Below, in pieces: positions 2,623-63,272 of a stretch of DNA of 64,000 nucleotides. The translations under genes were made by a program, and so were the position numbers. How positions within the stretch are numbered: the first letter of the stretch is position 1; the number at the start of each line of letters is the position of its first letter. Source of the DNA: Eledone cirrhosa (lineage: Eukaryota). The stretch lies in the NCBI GenBank assembly GCA_964016885.1, contig OZ024753.1, forward strand, positions 40,734,001 through 40,798,000, read 5' to 3'. The notes below the pieces were generated by a model that saw only the letters and a program-made list of their open reading frames with translations, was not told where the DNA came from and ran no database searches.

Positions 2623-2839
2623 GAGAGAGAGGGGGTGAGAGAATGACACTTATTGGCAATCTAAAGAGGGAAAGAGATAAAATAAAATAATAACAACAAC
2701 AACAACAGCAACAGCAATAACAACAACAACAGCATTGTGTAAACATTATTTATTTGTTTTCAGAGCTGATAATGTTAAAGAGTCTACAACGGCGACGGAA
2801 GTCAATTAACCACCTGCTCTGAGATATCTTCGTAGACGT

Positions 2840-4805
2840 AATTATCACTACAATAGTGACAGTAGTAATGGCTGCTTCCATAACGACGCCGTCGAGAAAG
2901 GGAGACACAAAACGGAGTCTCTCTCTATGTGGTAGCTTGATATGCTAGAAATAGGTACCAAATTGTCACTACAATAGTGACAGTAGTAATGGCTGCTTCC
3001 ATAACGACGTCGTCGAGAAAGGGAGACACAAAACGGAGTCTCTCTCTATGTGGTATCTTGATATGCTAGAAATAGGTACCAAATTGTCTCTACAATTGTG
3101 AAAGTCGAGAAAGGGAGACACAAAACGGAGTCTCTCTCTATGTGGTAGTTTGATATGCTAGAAATAGGTACCAAATTGTCACTACAATAGTGACAGTAGT
3201 AATGGCTGCTTCCATAACGACGTCGTCGAGAAAGGGAGACACAAAACGGAGTCTCTCTCTATGTGGTAGCTTGATATGCTAGAAATAGGTACCAAATTGT
3301 CACTACAATAGTGACAGTAGTAATGGCTGCTTCCATAACGACGTCGTCGAGAAAGGGAGACACAAAACGGAGTCTCTCTCTATGTGGTATCTTGATATGC
3401 TAGAAATAGGTACCAAATTGTCACTACAATTGTGACAGTAGTAATGGCTGCTTCCATAACGACGTCGTCGAGAAAGGGAGACACAAAACGGAGTCTCTCT
3501 CTATGTGGTAGCTTGATATGCTAGAAATAGGTACCAAATTGTCACTACAATAGTGACAGTAGTAATGGCTGCTTCCATAACGACGTCGTTGAGAAAGGGA
3601 GACACAAAACGGAGTCTCTCTCTATGTGGTATCTTGATATGCTAGAAATAGGTACCAAATTGTCACTACAATAGTGACAGTAGTAATGGCTGCTTCCATA
3701 ACGACGTCGTCGAGAAAGGGAGACACAAAACGGAGTCTCTCTCTATGTGGTATCTTGATATGCTAGAAATAGGTACCAAATTGTCACTACAATAGTGACA
3801 GTAGTAATGGCTGCTTCCATAACGACGTCGTCGAGAAAGGGAGACACAAAACGGAGTCTCTCTCTATGTGGTAGCTTGATATGCTAGAAATAGGTACCAA
3901 ATTGTCTCTACAATTGTGACAGTCGAGAAAGGGAGACACAAAACGGAGTCTCTCTCTATGTGGTATCTTGATATGCTAGAAATAGGTACCAAATTGTCTC
4001 TACAATTGTGAAAGCCGAGAAAGGGAGACACAAAACGGAGTCTCTCTCTATGTGGTAGCTTGATATGCTAGAAATAGGTACCAAATTGTCACTACAATTG
4101 TGACAGTAGTAATGGCTGCTTCCATAACGACGTCGTCGAGAAAGGGAGACACAAAACGGAGTCTCTCTCTATGTGGTATCTTGATATGCTAGAAATAGGT
4201 ACCAAATTGTCACTACAATAGTGACAGTAGTAATGGCTGCTTCCATAACGACGTCGTCGAGAAAGGGAGACACAAAACGGAGTCTCTCTATGTGGTATCT
4301 TGATATGCTAGAAATAGGTACCAAATTGTCACTACAATAGTGACAGTAGTAATGGCTGCTTCCATAACGACGTCGTCGAGAAAGGGAGACACAAAACGGA
4401 GTCTCTCTCTATGTGGTAGCTTGATATGCTAGAAATAGGTACTAAATTGTCTCTACAATTGTGAAAGTCGAGAAAGGGAGACACAAAACGGAGTCTCTCT
4501 CTATGTGGTATATTGATATGCTAGAAATAGGTACCAAATTGTCACTACAATTGTGACAGTCGAGAAAGGGAGACACGAGAGTCTCTCTATGTGGTAGCTT
4601 GATATGCTAGAAATAGGTACCAAATTGTCTCTACAATTGTGAAAGTCGAGAAAGGGAGACACAAAACAGAGTCTCTCTCTCTTTGTGGTATCTTGATATG
4701 CTAGAAATAGGTACCAAATTGTCACTACAATTGTGACAGTCGAGAAAGGGAGACACAAAACGGAGTCTCTCTATGTGGTAGCTTGGTATGCTAGAAATAG
4801 GTAAC
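2840..4805 (+). repeat. Minisatellite with mixed 121-bp and 92-bp units
   Basis: Unit starts at 2845, 2966, 3087 and 3179 give periods of 121, 121 and 92; the short unit lacks the agtaatggctgcttccataacgacgtc segment. Confidence 0.95.
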
Positions 4806-4809
4806 ACAT

Positions 4810-4943
4810 TATTTATTTCATCGACCCCGTAAGGATGAAAGGCAAAGTTAACCTGGGTGGAATTTGAACTCAGACCATAAAGGGGCGTAACTCTATACTG
4901 CAAGGCATGGCGTCCGACACTCTACCGATACTACCAATCCACC
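4810..4943 (-). mobile_element. SINE (same family), 3'-truncated
   Basis: tcgaccccgtaaggatgaaaggcaaagttaacc..tttgaactcag..ctaccgatactaccaatccacc. Confidence 0.9.
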
Positions 4944-5398: not shown

Positions 5399-5666
5399 AT
5401 AGTAGTAGTAGTAGTAGTAGTAGTCGTAGTAGTTGAAAAACATCAATGTAGTTATAAATAAGAAGAGTTGAAATTATTGATGGCAAGATTACACAGCTCT
5501 AGCATCACTCCTTCATAGTCAGCTTACGAACCTTTCGTATGTGTACAGGCGATTGAAAGAGAGACCCAGAACTTAGTAGAAATAACATAGAATTCTCCCT
5601 AAAATCACATTCTATTGTCTTAAAAAGCGAAGAAGTGTTATGTAGCATGTGTGGTGTTGTCTGCGA

Positions 5667-6739
5667 TGGATTGGCAGTATTGGTAGAGGGTCAGACACCA
5701 TGCTAGGGTGGTGGATTGGCAGTATCGGTAGAGGGTCAGACACCATGCTAGGGTGGTGGATTGGCAGTATCGGTAGAGGGTCAGACGCCATGTTAGGGTG
5801 GTGGATTGGCAGTATCGGTAGAGGGTCAGACGCCATGTTAGGGTGGTGGATTGGCAGTATTGGTAGAGGGTCGGACACCATGCTAGGGTGGTGGATTGGC
5901 AGTATTGGTAGAGGGTCAGACGCCATGTTAGGGTGGTGGATTGGCAGTATCGGTAGAGGGTCAGACACCATGCTAGGGTGGTGGATTGGCAGTATCGGTA
6001 GAGGGTCAGACACCATGCTAGGGTGGTGGATTGGCAGTATCGGTAGAGGGTCAGACGCCATGTTAGGGTGGTGGATTGGCAGTATCGGTAGAGGGTCAGA
6101 CGCCATGTTAGGGTGGTGGATTGGCAGTATTGGTAGAGGGTCGGACACCATGCTAGGGTGGTGGATTGGCAGTATTGGTAGAGGGTCGGACACCATGCTA
6201 GGGTGGTGGATTGGCAGTATCGGTAGAGGGTCGGACACCATGCTAGGGTGGTGGATTGGCAGTATCGGTAGAGGGTCGGACACCATGCTAGGGTGGTGGA
6301 TTGGCAGTATCGGTAGAGGGTCGGACACCATGCTAGGGTGGTGGATTGGCAGTATCGGTAGAGGGTCAGACACCATGCTAGGGTGGTGGATTGGCAGTAT
6401 TGGTAGAGGGTCGGACACCATGCTAGGGTGGTGGATTGGCAGTATCGGTAGAGGGTCGGACACCATGCTAGGGTGGTGGATTGGCAGTATCGGTAGAGGG
6501 TCGGACACCATGCTAGGGTGGTGGATTGGCAGTATCGGTAGAGGGTCGGACACCATGCTAGGGTGGTGGATTGGCAGTATCGGTAGAGGGTCAGACACCA
6601 TGCTAGGGTGGTGGATTGGCAGTATTGGTAGAGGGTCGGACACCATGCTAGGGTGGTGGATTGGCAGTATCGGTAGAGGGTCGGACGCCATGTTAGGGGG
6701 GGGTTTGCAGTATCGGTAGAGGGTCAGACGCCATGTTAG
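5667..6739 (+). repeat. 45-bp tandem array (about 24 copies) made from the SINE 5' head
   Basis: Unit ggtggtggattggcagtatcggtagagggtcagacaccatgctag; a 15-aa period in the ORF track. Confidence 0.95.
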
Positions 6740-6932
6740 GGCGGTGGATTGGCAGTATCGGTAGAGGGTCAGACGCCATGCTTTGACGCATAGAGTTACG
6801 GCCCTTGCCATTCTGAGTTCACATCCCGACGGGGTTAACTTTGCCTTTCATCCTTACGGGGTCGATGAAATAAAGTACCAGTAATGCACTGGGGTAATTG
6901 CTGGCCTTGTGCCAAAAAAGTAGAAACAATTA
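6740..6932 (+). mobile_element. Full-length SINE terminating the 45-bp array
   Basis: ggcggtggattggcag through ggccttgtgccaaaaaagtagaaacaatta. Confidence 0.92.
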
Positions 6933-9878: not shown

Positions 9879-9914
<36 letters not shown>

Positions 9915-9922
<8 letters not shown>

Positions 9923-10037
9923 GACGTAAAATAAGAAAATTATAAAAATTAACTTACTTACTAAAATTTCACTCCAGGAGTGAAATTTTAGTAAGTAAGT
10001 TAATTTTTATAATTTTTTTGTTTTACGTCTTTCATAT
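9915..10037. repeat. Near-perfect palindrome (about 60-bp arms, 1-nt loop) adjoining (TA)n
   Basis: Axis at 9976 (aatttcactcc-a-ggagtgaaatt). Confidence 0.92.
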
Positions 10038-10147
10038 AATTGTTCTGCATCCCCTTGCATTGAACCACAAAGTTACTAAGACAAAACGTATATATTTGCT
10101 AGCATAGGTATGCATCTGTATATATATGTTTGATAGATATACTAATT

Positions 10148-10193: not shown

Positions 10194-10296
10194 ATATTAA
10201 ATAAATGAAAACTATATTTATAAAACCATATTTATTCTATTATATATATTTCAAGGGTACCAAAACTTTGGTACGCTCTCATCAGATAAAATACAA
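10187..10296 (-). mobile_element. Family A TA-inserted cassette with hammerhead-like motif
   Basis: The - strand reads ttttat-CTGATGA-gagcgtacca/tggtaccctt-GAAA-tatata-TA-atagaa, then the shared tail aaatatggttttataaatatag. Confidence 0.75.
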
Positions 10297-11220: not shown

Positions 11221-11300
11221 AGATGAGAGAGGTAGAGACAGTGAATGAAGAAGTGAGAGAGAAAGACAGAGGAAATATATATATATATATATGTATATAT

Positions 11301-11499
11301 AACGAAGGAAATGTGGTAAGGAACCAGGTGGACCATAACGCACCAAAGTACTCAATACTTGAGGTAGTAGAGTGGGTAATAGGAACCAGTAAGACCCCGA
11401 CAGCTGAGCTCAAGCCGTTTCGACGGCTAATTCTCAAATTAGCCGTCGAATTAGCCGTCGAAACGGCTTGAGCTCAGCTGTCGGGGTCTTACTGGTTCC

Positions 11500-11500
<1 letters not shown>
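11301..11500 (-). mobile_element. Family B TA-inserted fold-back cassette (long arm -, short arm +)
   Basis: The long arm matches the reverse complement of 63117-63246; an inverted short arm at 11449-11500 ends at gttcct and runs into (TA)n. Confidence 0.88.
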
Positions 11501-11579
<79 letters not shown>

Positions 11580-11773
11580 GTATATTAGGGAGAGGATCAG
11601 GGGTGTATAACACTCCACTTATACAACAGGCAGTATAAGGTTAGCTCGATGTCTGAGGACAGAGCCGTGATATTGTTCCACTTATAGTGCGGATGAAACA
11701 ATGTTAGCAAGTAAAGATATGCATATGCCATAGGCGTTCTTTGTTATTGATTATATATATATATATATATATG

Positions 11774-11813
<40 letters not shown>

Positions 11814-11825
11814 TATACATATATA

Positions 11826-12248
11826 TAAAATATTAAAAAAATAATGAATAAAACAATGAAACAGTTCCTTATATTAAACAAAAAAAGTTCATTATTTAAC
11901 GATCGTTTCTAGGATTTATATGTGTTAGAATTGGCATGCATATTCAACAGATCTATGTACAAAATTATACAAACTATCAAAATTAAATATACATACCAAA
12001 CACATATATATGCCGTCTTCAGAAATAATAAATTTTATTTCTGAAGACGGCATATATATGTGTTTGGTATGTATATTTAATTTTGATAGTTTGTATAATT
12101 TTGTATAATTTTGTACATAGATCTGTTGAATATGCATGCCAATTCTAACACATATATATCCTAGAAACGATCGTTAAATAATGAACTTTTTTTGTTTAAT
12201 ATAAGGAACTGTTTCATTGTTTTATTCATTATTTTTTTAATATTTTAT
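11826..12248. repeat. Palindrome of about 420 bp (about 200-bp arms, short loop near 12030)
   Basis: The arms are reverse complements apart from about one substitution and an 11-bp duplication (ttgtataattt) in the right arm. Confidence 0.95.
12035..12181 (+). ncRNA. Putative type-I hammerhead ribozyme with long stem II (mirror copy on - in the left arm)
   Basis: ttattt-CTGAAGA(12041)...GAAA(12164)-cgatcg-TT-aaataa; stem II atatatatgtg/cacatatatat plus ttggtatgtatatt/aatatgcatgccaa with G-U pairs. Confidence 0.65.
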
Positions 12249-12379
12249 CTTGACTCTGTATTCCGTTTATCTTTCACCGAAAGTGATTTTTCATTGCATC
12301 TCTTCTTTCCATGATATCCGGATTACATTGAGTTCTTCATACGGATTGGACACTACCGTAAACTCTTGGTAGATTTATC

Positions 12380-12437
<58 letters not shown>

Positions 12438-12450
12438 GATAAATCTACCA

Positions 12451-12651
12451 AGTCATAGTTCTTTCGTCACACACTCTGTGACCTCTTCAGTGACTGGGGA
12501 TTTCTTTCTTCGTTTCTGTGCCTTTCCTTTCTTCTATCCTACGCCATTTTCAAAATGGCGTAGGATAGAAGAAAGGAAAGGCACAGAAACGAAGAAAGAA
12601 ATCCCCAGTCACTGAAGAGGTCACAGAGTGTGTGACGAAAGAACTATGACT
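12451..12651. repeat. Perfect palindrome, 100-bp arms, 1-nt loop
   Basis: Axis at c12551 (cgccatttt-c-aaaatggcg). Confidence 0.95.
12607..12651 (+). ncRNA. Putative minimal hammerhead ribozyme (mirror copy at 12451-12495 on -)
   Basis: agtca-CTGAAGA-g-gtcaca/tgtgac-GAAA-gaac-TA-tgact; stem I agtca/tgact is perfect. Confidence 0.6.
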
Positions 12652-13265: not shown

Positions 13266-13275
13266 ATAGATATAT

Positions 13276-13438
13276 AACGAATAAAGTGCGGTAAGGAACC
13301 AGATGAACCATAACGCACCAGAGTACTCAATACTGGGTAGTAGAGTGGGTAATAGGAAAAGAGTCGGGACCCCGACGGCTGAGCTCCGGCCGTTTCGACA
13401 GCTAGGTCTGAACAGTTCAGACCGAGCTGCCGAAACGT
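13276..13438 (-). mobile_element. Family B cassette with a short fold-back stub
   Basis: aacgaat..ggtaaggaaccag..gtactcaatact..gacggctgagctccggccgtttcgacagct followed by inverted agctgccgaaacg. Confidence 0.85.
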
Positions 13439-15535: not shown

Positions 15536-15623
15536 ATATATAAGATCAAAAGATGGTTAAATGAGTTCCATGTATTTTATAAAATACATGGAACTCATTT
15601 AACCATCTTTTGATCTTATATAT
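15536..15623. repeat. Perfect loopless palindrome (44-bp arms) running into (TA)n
   Basis: Axis at 15579/15580 (tgtattttataaaataca). Confidence 0.93.
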
Positions 15624-17578: not shown

Positions 17579-17776
17579 TTTAAAATCCAAAGTCAATAAA
17601 TACGCCCGCCAGGTGTTTTCATTCTGATGATTGAAAGCAACATTTTTTTGCTTTTAAGAAACCACTGGTAAATGATATACTTACCTTATGTTGTTTATTA
17701 CATAACTATTAAGCTCTGTTACCTACATAGAGCACTCTTTTTTTCCTGGACTTTTCCGACGGAATTACTTAATTCA

Positions 17777-28485: not shown

Positions 28486-28656
28486 GAAAAGAGTCAGGAT
28501 CCCGACGGCTGAGCTCCGGCCGTTTCGAAGCTGTCAAAACGGCCGGAGCTCAGCCGCCGAGGTCCTGACTCTTTTCCTATTATCCACTCTACTATCCAGT
28601 ATTGAGTACTTTGGTGCGTTATGGTCCAGCTGGTTACTTACCACACTTCCTTCGTT
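28486..28656 (+). mobile_element. Family B fold-back cassette (short arm -, long arm +)
   Basis: gaaaagagtcaggatcccgacggctgagctccggccgttt / aaacggccggagctcagccg..ctgactcttttcctatt..cttcgtt. Confidence 0.85.
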
Positions 28657-28662
28657 ATATAT

Positions 28663-30642: not shown

Positions 30643-30722
30643 TATAAGTAAATATTGGGAGCGTAGTGTCGTCTTTATGTTTAACATTTAAAGTCGACAC
30701 TCCGCTCCCAATATTTACTTAT
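30643..30722. repeat. Imperfect inverted repeat
   Basis: ataagtaaatattgggagcg..agtgtcg / cgacact..cgctcccaatatttacttat. Confidence 0.85.
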
Positions 30723-31651: not shown

Positions 31652-31654
31652 TAT

Positions 31655-31777
31655 AACGAAGGAAATGTGGTAAGGAACCAGATGGACCATAACGCACCAG
31701 AGTACTCAATACTTAGGGTAGTAGAGTGGGTAATAGGAAAAAGTATGACTCCGACGGCAGAGCTCAAGCCGTTTCGA
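31655..31777 (-). mobile_element. Family B long arm, abutting a SINE
   Basis: aacgaaggaaatgtggtaaggaacc..gagctcaagccgtttcga. Confidence 0.88.
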
Positions 31778-34189: not shown

Positions 34190-34254
34190 TACATCCTCGT
34201 TTTGTTTCTCATCTATCTAGAGTCTAGATAGATGAGAAACAAAACGAGGATGTA
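34190..34254. repeat. Perfect palindrome (32-bp arms, 1-nt loop)
   Basis: Axis at g34222 (tctaga-g-tctaga). Confidence 0.92.
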
Positions 34255-35085: not shown

Positions 35086-35271
35086 TATATATGTATGTAT
35101 AAGTTTAAGTATTGCATTTTCTTATTCTCTTCGCACTATATATATATGTGTGTGTGTGTGAGTGCAAATACATAAATATATATATATAGTTGTGCGTACA
35201 TACATACATATAAACATACATATATATATACGTGTATATATATATACCCGAGAATCTATGTTTCTCTGTCT

Positions 35272-35317
<46 letters not shown>

Positions 35318-35544
35318 AGACAGAGAATCATAGATTCTCGGGTGTAACTCTGAACATGATATAAAGAGGTAACAAACACATGCGTCCCGCTGGTTCGTTT
35401 CCCTCAAGAATAACAATCAAGAATTTAGAGCAATATTTTGAAAGATAATTCTTCGTTAGTTTTAATGCTGAATAAATCTGTTGGCTTTATATATAATTAG
35501 AAACAATAACAATGTAGTATGTATATTTTTCTACACGATGCACA

Positions 35545-38362: not shown

Positions 38363-38503
38363 CATTTCTATATATATACTGAAGTAAAAGTTAAGTGAAA
38401 TATCCAAGAGTAAGAGCACTCAGTCCATAGTACGAGTTTAGTATAAATAATTACAACAGTGACATAAACAGCTACTCAAGTTTTATTGGGTTCTGGGAAG
38501 TTG

Positions 38504-38553
38504 ACAGGCTGAATGGTTTGGGACCCAGAACCCAACGAAACTTGAGTACCTGT
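38504..38553 (+). ncRNA. Degenerate hammerhead-like motif within inverted repeat 38448-38573
   Basis: acagg-CTGAATG-gtttggg/cccaac-GAAA-cttgag-TA-cctgt; stem I is perfect but the core deviates from CUGANGA. Confidence 0.5.
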
Positions 38554-38588
38554 TTATGTCACTGTTATAATTATTTATATATATATAC

Positions 38589-38641: not shown

Positions 38642-38823
38642 TACGTTATTCCGGGTTGAATCGGAGGTAACCACAGTAAGTAAGGTACTCAATACATTGC
38701 AGAGTATAAAAGTTTTAATATAGATGAGATTCTACAAGACTAGAACTGTTTCATTCTTTAGAAATCATCAGGATTCTTGATGATTTCTAAAGAATGAAAC
38801 AGTTCTCGTCCTGTAGAATCTCA

Positions 38824-38830
<7 letters not shown>
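38640..38830 (-). mobile_element. TA-flanked fold-back cassette (palindrome 38718-38830) with a hammerhead-like core
   Basis: The - strand reads CTGATGA-tttctaaagaat-GAAA-cagttctagtc and shares gtattgagtac with family B; a related fragment lies at 47519-47578. Confidence 0.7.
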
Positions 38831-38882
<52 letters not shown>

Positions 38883-38885
<3 letters not shown>

Positions 38886-39083
38886 AAAAGGTATGACCCC
38901 GAAGGCAGAGCTCAAGCCGTTTCGACCGCTATTTCTGGACTCAGAAAGTCCAGAAATAGCCGTCGAAACGGCTTGAGCTCTGCCGTCGGGGTCATACTTT
39001 TTCCTATTTACCACTCTACTACCCTAAGTATTGAGTACTCTGGTGCGTTATGGTCCATCTGGTTCCTTACCACAATTCCTTTG

Positions 39084-39085
<2 letters not shown>
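38883..39085 (+). mobile_element. Family B fold-back cassette
   Basis: Short inverted arm 38883-38941, loop, then a long arm ending ccttt gtt into (TA)n. Confidence 0.9.
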
Positions 39086-39134
<49 letters not shown>

Positions 39135-53745: not shown

Positions 53746-53896
53746 CAATAAAAATCTGTTGATGTTGTAGACGCTCTTGTGTTCTTTTTCATATATACGG
53801 CTCTGCTCCAAAGCATAGAGCTAATTATTATGCTGCCAATACCTTAACGGGACACGGGTATATAATACCTAACTCCTACTAACCTAAGTATATATA

Positions 53897-54003
53897 TATA
53901 TATGAATAAAGTTAGTCCTTCATCAGTGATCTTCCAGCCATCATTGGTATTTCATCGCTGGTTGGAAGATCACTGATGAAGGACTAACTTTATTCATATA
54001 TAT
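53897..54003. repeat. TA-flanked inverted repeat containing CTGATGA
   Basis: gaataaagttagtccttcatcagtgatcttcca / tggaagatcactgatgaaggactaactttattc. Confidence 0.9.
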
Positions 54004-54119
54004 ATATATATATAAGTATTAAGTTGTTAAACAATATTCGATGATTATGTCAAAGAATGAGTTTTACCTTGATTAAATCTTAACCATTTAACATCTCAGG
54101 GTATGTCATGTATCATTGT

Positions 54120-54172
54120 ATTTTGTCTGATGAGGACGTACTGTTGTACATCCGAAATATGTATAATAAAAT
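54120..54172 (+). ncRNA. Putative type-I hammerhead ribozyme (best match in the window; family A relative)
   Basis: attttgt-CTGATGA-gga.c.gtac/gtac.a.tcc-GAAA-tatgta-TA-ataaaat; canonical core, G-C closing pair in stem II, 7-bp stem I. Confidence 0.72.
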
Positions 54173-62389: not shown

Positions 62390-62459
<70 letters not shown>

Positions 62460-62462
<3 letters not shown>

Positions 62463-62665
62463 AAGGAGTAGGACCCGGACGGCTGAGCTCAACCCATTTC
62501 GACGGCTAATTCTGGACTAAAACATTTTACTCCAGAATTAGCCGTCGAAACGGCTTGAGCTCAGCCGTCGGGGTCCTACTCGTTCCTATTACCCACTCTA
62601 CTACCCTAATCATTGAGTACTTTGGTGCGTTATGGTCCACCTGGTTCCTTACCACATTTCCTTCG

Positions 62666-62667
<2 letters not shown>
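62460..62667 (+). mobile_element. Family B fold-back cassette
   Basis: Short inverted arm 62460-62519 and long arm 62529-62667; both ends lie in (TA)n. Confidence 0.9.
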
Positions 62668-62759
<92 letters not shown>

Positions 62760-63054: not shown

Positions 63055-63116
<62 letters not shown>

Positions 63117-63120
<4 letters not shown>

Positions 63121-63246
63121 CCGTCGAAACGGCTTGAGCTCAGCTGTCGGGGTCTTACTGGTTCCTATTACCCACTCTACTACCTCAAGTATTGAGTACT
63201 TTGGTGCGTTATGGTCCACCTGGTTCCTTACCACATTTCCTTCGTT
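63117..63246 (+). mobile_element. Family B long arm only
   Basis: ttagccgtcgaaacggcttgagctcagctgtcggggtc..catttccttcgtt, flanked by (TA)n on both sides. Confidence 0.9.
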
Positions 63247-63272
63247 ATATATATATATATGTATATATATGA

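Follow-up and report, generated by a model that had tools for sequence, protein, structure and literature searches.

Introduction

Minimal hammerhead ribozymes with a palindromic helix III have been described at the ends of Penelope-like elements (PLEs), where they occur as opposite-strand pairs 100-700 bp apart and show low activity (PMC4209133). In these motifs helix II is 6-8 bp long, an extra base follows A9 and the pair G10.1-C11.1 is conserved (Cervera and De la Pena 2014, PMC4209133). Head-to-head palindromes, a tail and self-priming have been reported for PLE insertions (PMC3846280), as have inverted truncated copies and (TA)n targets (PMC8557442). The substrate for insertion is the uncleaved RNA; in vitro, insertion did not depend on cleavage, and the ribozyme requires protein (PMC11167929). 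Recently active Penelope families are present in Octopus vulgaris, and the main text of the report describing them makes no mention of hammerheads (PMC13282606). Descriptor searches have allowed 7-17 nt between the core halves, and 35-50 nt at most for 'half cores' (PMC8557442).

The DNA analysed here (the window) is a 64-kb stretch of microsatellite-rich, non-coding animal-type sequence. Its short interspersed repeats presumably resemble those of octopus genomes. It contains a palindrome which, in our view, is probably a 5'-truncated inverted end (pseudo-LTR) of a PLE inserted at a (TA)n tract, carrying two type I minimal hammerhead motifs with an elongated stem II that are predicted to be silent.

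Results

A palindrome with a hammerhead motif in each arm

An earlier note on this DNA had described a 420-bp palindrome made of two head-to-head hammerheads. The structure is real: positions 11825-12248 form a 424-bp inverted repeat with a hammerhead motif in each arm (Table 1). The two arms differ by one substitution (11916 versus 12157) and by a 10-nt tandem duplication in the right arm. The palindrome is flanked by (AT)n on the left and by CTTG on the right, and a TA duplication is absent on the right. The extension behind the right arm may be the element's tail or a separate repeat, the latter because other upstream flanks precede it in other contigs.

Table 1. Coordinates of the palindrome, its hammerhead motifs and the neighbouring palindrome
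Feature	Position	Strand	Remarks
Left arm of inverted repeat	11825..12028	-	ends in (AT)n-like run 11753-11824
6-nt loop TAAATT, fold-back axis	12029..12034	.	in other runs, spacer absent or different (14-15 nt)
Right arm of inverted repeat	12035..12248	+	
134-nt extension	12249..12382	+	right arm only; terminates in (TA)n
Left hammerhead motif	11888..12032	-	10-bp stem I (12032-12023 with 11897-11888), core 12022-12016, 106-nt stem II, GAAA 11909-11906, predicted cut after 11898
Right hammerhead motif	12035..12181	+	6-bp stem I (12035-12040 with 12176-12181), core 12041-12047, GAAA 12164-12167, predicted cut after 12175
Long stem II	12048..12163	+	base C x A, G.U, G-C, C x C; 13-bp and 17-bp helices; inner hairpin with 10-nt duplication; z = -6.9
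Self-complementary stem III segment, dimer helix	12166..12175	+	8-bp form, -10.0 kcal/mol
Second head-to-head palindrome	12451..12651	.	100-bp arms, no mismatch, 1-nt loop; cores 12490- and 12612+; 200 bp from main palindrome

Both arms contain the type I core CUGANGA...GAAA...UH, in the form CUGAAGA, GAAA and UU (16.1/17). The core CTGAAGA begins at 12041(+) and 12022(-), and GAAA begins at 12164(+) and 11909(-). Stem III, AACGATCGTT, is self-complementary in both arms, in agreement with the palindromic stem III originally proposed; the self-pairing helix III AACGAUCGUU is a PLE-type feature, and the cut site lies 73 nt from the arm end. The earlier note also placed the start of each arm exactly at stem I, which is correct for the right arm with its 6-bp stem I but does not apply to the left arm, where stem I extends to 10 bp. 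It omitted that the first pair of stem II is a mismatch: the pair 10.1-11.1 that closes helix II, usually a paired G-C, is C x A in both arms. Position 17 is U in both. Hammerheads with U17 cleave more slowly than those with C or A.

Our own descriptor identified eight hammerhead-like motifs in the 64-kb window. With stricter cut-offs, six short-insert matches and one long-insert match remained in the real sequence, compared with 0 + 0 in 60 block-wise dinucleotide shuffles; the left-arm motif fell under the long-insert cut-off, so that one long-insert match was counted and not two. The initial identification of hammerheads is supported. Rfam hammerhead models gave no match at the gathering threshold in the window and none at the locus among 118 weak matches; what they did report were chance matches of hairpin type. 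This test is insensitive to the present class of hammerhead, since a textbook short motif at 54127 was missed as well. No exact match to the 22-nt core pattern was found in metagenome contigs.

An elongated stem II with strand-biased pairing

The unusually long stem II was correctly recognised at the outset. GAAA had been placed about 115 nt after the core; the insert is 116 nt in the right arm and 106 nt in the left, and forms a rod of about 30 bp or more. Its helices, given earlier as 11 and 14 bp, are in fact 13 bp, all Watson-Crick, and 17 bp, with four U.G pairs and no other mismatch. On the core strand the insert folds at -42.4 kcal/mol (z = -6.9), versus -21.4 kcal/mol (z = -3.5) on the opposite strand. 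In 12 other non-simple DNA palindromes, a hand tally of the 25 arm mismatches found 13 transversions, with G.T accounting for 6 on the plus strand and another 6 on the minus strand. Because the core strand folds better, and because all four non-Watson-Crick pairs are U.G as against 6/25 elsewhere, there is fair support, from sequence and modelled folding, for an RNA-level origin of the G.U/U.G pairs in the 17-bp helix. When transitions alone are considered, the bias has p = 0.06, with the helix ends for the U.G count picked by folding. The earlier note had read G-U pairs working only on the core strand as a sign of selection at the RNA level. The strand asymmetry holds, and so does the U.G identity of all four pairs; an RNA-level mutation bias is another possible cause, and selection and such a bias cannot be told apart from this pattern.

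A retained spliceosomal intron within stem II was considered and rejected: the donor-like site at 12067 lies inside the 17-bp helix, and a simple acceptor pattern was found only at 12372.

Predicted folding and activity

When an arm is folded with RNAfold, as the earlier note recommended, stem II is recovered and stems I and III are not. In the minimum fold the core pairs with the foot (3' base) of stem II, and the active monomer lies 7.3 kcal/mol (right) and 4.1 kcal/mol (left) above this minimum; the gap is similar in the short-stem relatives described below (7.8, 4.3 and 5.6 kcal/mol). All three helices can nonetheless form, namely a stem I of 6 or 10 bp, the long rod, and a stem III of 2 bp in the monomer or 8 bp in a dimer. 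A strand-swapped dimer is predicted at -88.0 versus -87.8 kcal/mol, and at -84.0 versus -79.4 kcal/mol, for two monomers, and the unconstrained cofold is lower still.

A transcript from either strand contains one ribozyme motif and its full antisense copy, as had been pointed out from the letters alone, and the read-through transcript folds into a 203-bp hairpin (-300 kcal/mol) that buries the core. At the locus, the antisense arm is transcribed ahead of the core in read-through RNA. The three starts tested (11826, 11990 and 12010) all leave the core paired to its antisense copy, and in the folding a start at about 12030 or later escapes this pairing. With the core bound up by the antisense arm in this way, a silent ribozyme is predicted in read-through RNA from the locus. 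Cleavage by the motif appears doubtful in view of the C x A pair at 10.1-11.1, U17, an active fold that is not the minimum and the antisense pairing of the core in read-through RNA. Among the 24 listed public runs, no RNA run carried this stretch.

Short-stem relatives in the window

Five short-stem motifs, at 10285(-), 15727(-), 18274(+), 39431(+) and 54127(+), are located about 50 nt before (TA)n. Aligned with one another, they pair in every one of 93 cells, and stem II shows four double-sided changes; the sequences are related and the structure was set by hand, so that shuffle counts for this alignment are not probabilities. They keep a mismatch at stem II pair 4, and the cores of two copies have decayed. 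The base of the long stem II keeps this register (C x A, G.U, G-C, then C x C as the mismatch at pair 4, followed by the 13 Watson-Crick pairs). It is identical to the 18274 copy at 11 of 14 positions, which 215 of 200,000 random stems matched, this being the best of six comparisons. The arms reach E values of 3.1 and 3.7, which are not significant, with a covariance model built from the five relatives, and kinship with the short-stem motifs therefore rests on the stem II base. This resemblance suggests that the long-stem arms are related to the short-stem motifs and that stem II probably grew from their short hairpin by nested inverted duplication. A further hammerhead-like motif, at 17624(+), has a 10-bp stem II and a near-palindromic stem III.

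Fold-backs across the window

The head-to-head palindrome turns out to be ordinary here. A scan listed 21 fold-backs in the 64 kb, 13 of them non-simple by hand reading, and most lie beside (TA)n. The layout recurs at 12451-12651 and matches described PLE inverted ends; the hammerheads of this second palindrome are ordinary minimal motifs of the PLE type, with an extra base after A9, a 6-bp stem II starting with G-C and a 5-bp stem I. With this second pair and a family of half-hammerhead repeats among the fold-backs, the layout of the main palindrome is the local norm.

Members of the half-hammerhead family lie at 11300-11502, 13275-13430, 28486-28657, 31654-31777, 38881-39086, 62458-62668 and 63116-63247. 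They carry the 3' half (GAAAC ... GUC, with a palindromic loop III) without CUGANGA, and fold back inside the presumed stem II. In those at 11379, 28486, 38881, 62458 and 13368 the short arm has a fixed end, which is the same base in three copies, and about 79 nt of tail run to (TA)n. Arm mismatches at 62458-62589 and 38881-39007 are mostly transversions (4/5 and 2/3, respectively), largely C/G swaps; this differs from ordinary decay and may reflect error-prone second-strand synthesis or sequencing error.

At 12364-12452 and 35246-35343, a short unique sequence flanks a (TA)n tract on one side and recurs on the other as an inverted duplicate; possibly the tract was nicked, folded back and copied its own flank. 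The palindromes 38718-38830 and 53889-54010 carry CTGATGA, either in both arms or at or near the axis, and no complete ribozyme in them passed the descriptor. The hammerhead core was not found in the non-simple fold-backs at 9914-10038, 15536-15623, 30644-30722, 34190-34254 and 38442-38579, which have arms of 32-62 bp and of which several lie beside (TA)n. Tandem arrays, judged from repeating translations, occupy approximately 2750-4900 (units of about 121 bp) and 5612-6847 (units of about 45 bp).

Copies in public runs

Part of the stretch is contained in 20 of the 24 listed public runs. Four runs were aligned on 12024-12385, with 46 records and 13 loose ends standing outside the listing. Among the contigs listed, those of X2, X6 and X8, which bear three organism labels and come from three studies, start at 12035. 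The loose end of X6 is the mirror arm with zero spacer, and that of X8 is the mirror arm after a different spacer of 14-15 nt (depth 3, identical over 158 nt). The loose end of X2 mixes two records, one of which appears to be an unrelated upstream flank, and X2 arms run into (TA)n behind 12248. Because these contigs start at the same axis, two of them with a fold-back and other spacers, the fold-back at 11825-12248 is a genuine genomic structure and not an assembly artefact. The window's own spacer is spanned by no contig among those listed. Most arm ends do not continue into 12249-12382, and X6 repeats the 134-nt extension without the arm. X6 holds two variants, 9 letters and 11 gap positions apart, and both start at 12035.

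Of 21 substitution rows, 8 private to X21 and 2 at 12246 and 12296 were left out, and 11 were kept. X21 consists of raw Hi-C reads, about 1 in 100 of which was read; its 11 reads were all <90% alike, aligned only in part and were treated as chance A/T-rich matches. Summed contig depth was not taken as copy number. Compared, unphased, with the window's partner base, two of the 11 arm substitutions keep a pair, four break one and five are unpaired. The core is invariant in the aligned copies. No substitution is listed at 12041-12062 or 12144-12179 in X2, X6 and X8, so that the C x A pair and U17 can be regarded as family traits in these close copies. In one X6 loose end, read by eye, A replaces the window's G at two U.G pairs, making them Watson-Crick.

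Origin of the palindrome

If the palindrome is a PLE end, the reverse transcriptase would have primed at a nicked (TA)n tract and begun to copy the RNA about 73 nt downstream of the cleavage site, continuing through the ribozyme in its uncleaved state. Copying would have stopped just 5' of stem I, where the A/T-rich cDNA end could fold on itself and prime the second strand, yielding a head-to-head copy. In the parent RNA the motif would act, if at all, as a weak dimer via the palindromic stem III, possibly with the help of protein. The left arm is probably the original strand, given its longer stem I and the upstream letters that it has in common with the X8 record.

Two further PLE features are observed here, an inverted 5'-truncated copy with a palindromic junction and the (TA)n target bias of Neptune and Naiad, the latter in the left flank and in the X2 loose ends behind 12248. 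The one-sided tail of PLEs measures 30-40 nt, versus a 134-nt extension here that is possibly another repeat. A scan of 69 of 130 non-simple frames gave no relevant Pfam match for a reverse transcriptase or GIY-YIG frame, and one sub-threshold unrelated match. The extension and the tail of the neighbouring family were considered as places where PLE coding sequence might begin, and this was set aside: the two end frames have no protein relatives, which is weak evidence. No coding frame is linked to the palindrome, so that formal PLE membership is putative; the motif would work like a PLE minimal hammerhead in an inverted pseudo-LTR. The axis is fixed in all copies seen, which is the main point that self-priming does not explain, as truncation points should vary.

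A fixed axis would follow from a single ancestral fold-back that then moved as a whole palindrome, as a small non-autonomous element, with a PLE or a DNA transposase mobilising it in trans. The common start at 12035 of the contigs listed at the 5' end, including the two X6 variants, is consistent with such movement, as is the fact that most arm ends do not continue into 12249-12382. We consider it unlikely, however, because the spacer is 6 nt in the window, absent in X6 and 14-15 nt in X8, one X2 loose end is apparently an unrelated upstream flank, the arms are near-identical, as fresh second-strand copying would give, and the right flank has no TA duplication. MITEs and foldback DNA elements are likewise short non-coding palindromes at TA-rich sites. 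In contrast to these, a target-site duplication is not seen here, with (AT)n on the left and CTTG on the right, and a ribozyme motif on the sense strand would point to an RNA intermediate, against a MITE. Far less likely still is a fold-back chimera from library preparation or assembly: near-perfect palindromes are dense in the window and no listed contig spans its spacer, but a substitution and a 10-nt duplication distinguish the two arms, runs from other studies fold back at the same axis, and related palindromes have a common fixed short-arm end. Very unlikely, too, is a domesticated locus in which a promoter at the A/T-rich axis produces two divergent ribozyme-terminated RNAs, or in which read-through gives a 200-bp dsRNA for small-RNA silencing of the family. 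Starts at about 12030 or later would avoid antisense pairing, and bidirectional promoter motifs have been noted in rotifer PLE ends (PMC3846280), yet many unrelated fold-backs in the window have the same layout and the private arm differences resemble ordinary decay.

It is quite possible, although tentative, that the motif is a dead pseudo-ribozyme, a PLE hammerhead inactivated when nested inverted duplication at the DNA level lengthened stem II, with limited spread thereafter that did not require cleavage. This is compatible with the PLE pseudo-LTR explanation as to origin. The C x A pair, U17, the height of the active monomer above the minimum (7.3/4.1 kcal/mol) and the pairing of the core with the 3' base of stem II argue for it, as does insertion in vitro that did not need cleavage (PMC11167929). 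Against it, the short-stem relatives have similar gaps, the core is invariant in the aligned copies, the U.G pairs are strand-biased, and in the axolotl a hammerhead (Amex2) whose helix II begins with a U.U mismatch is able to cleave (PMC7229834). Hardly to be expected, by contrast, is a long stem II that serves as an ADAR landing rod gating the ribozyme, with A 11.1 (12163) edited to inosine to repair the closing pair and with U.G pairs that are edits fixed by reverse transcription. The host is presumably a high-editing cephalopod. At the foot of a 30-bp duplex, the A at 12163 belongs to a UAG triplet and faces a C; inosine there would halve the energy predicted to separate the active fold from the minimum (from 7.3 to 3.7 kcal/mol and from 4.1 to 2.3 kcal/mol), and the G of each U.G pair is always preceded by U. 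An A-C mismatch and UAN favour editing and a 3' G beside the opposing C inhibits it (10.1101/605972). The strand opposite 12163 reads ACG, a context in which a human-cell reporter was not edited (10.1101/605972), and 12163 lies at a helix end. Were this reading true, a retroelement would contain a natural ribozyme switched by editing.

Comparison with known systems

The reading that we prefer is a PLE pseudo-LTR. The motifs resemble the minimal hammerheads of PLEs (PMC4209133) in being type I, with intact CUGANGA/GAAA, in having a short A/U-rich helix I and a short palindromic helix III that needs a dimer, in forming opposite-strand pairs separated by a few hundred bp and in mostly lacking a coding region. 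What sets them apart from the motifs described there is the 106-116-nt rod, the mismatch at pair 4 and, at 10.1-11.1, C x A. The palindrome is like PLE pseudo-LTR ends (PMC3846280, PMC8557442) as a 5'-truncated inverted copy with a junction palindrome, a one-sided extension and (TA)n; unlike the ends described in those reports, it has no RT/GIY-YIG frame that we could see, its extension is 134 nt and not 30-40 nt, and all copies seen share one axis. Non-LTR retrozymes (PMC7229834) are also small, non-coding, A/T-rich metazoan repeats with a type I hammerhead, and offer the precedent for a mismatch at the helix II base. They are described as 150-450-bp head-to-tail tandems with canonical loop-loop contacts, whereas the arrangement here is head-to-head; no head-to-tail tandem of 150-450-bp units was found in the window, just the inverted copy.

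In the literature, outside the supplementary alignments of PMC4209133 and PMC8557442, which may hold a precedent, we found no PLE hammerhead described with a stem II of 100 nt. Hammerheads with a 100-nt rod would escape short-spacer descriptors, and some families called ribozyme-less might carry them. Should the motif cleave, it would show that a hammerhead in nature can accommodate both a mismatched closing pair and a large structured insert. With the fold-back point fixed at the 5' edge of stem I here, and lying inside stem II in a neighbouring family, the two also provide a test of how the inverted ends of PLEs arise. What is new at this locus is the long stem II on a known PLE minimal hammerhead; the palindrome itself is routine for such retroelements.
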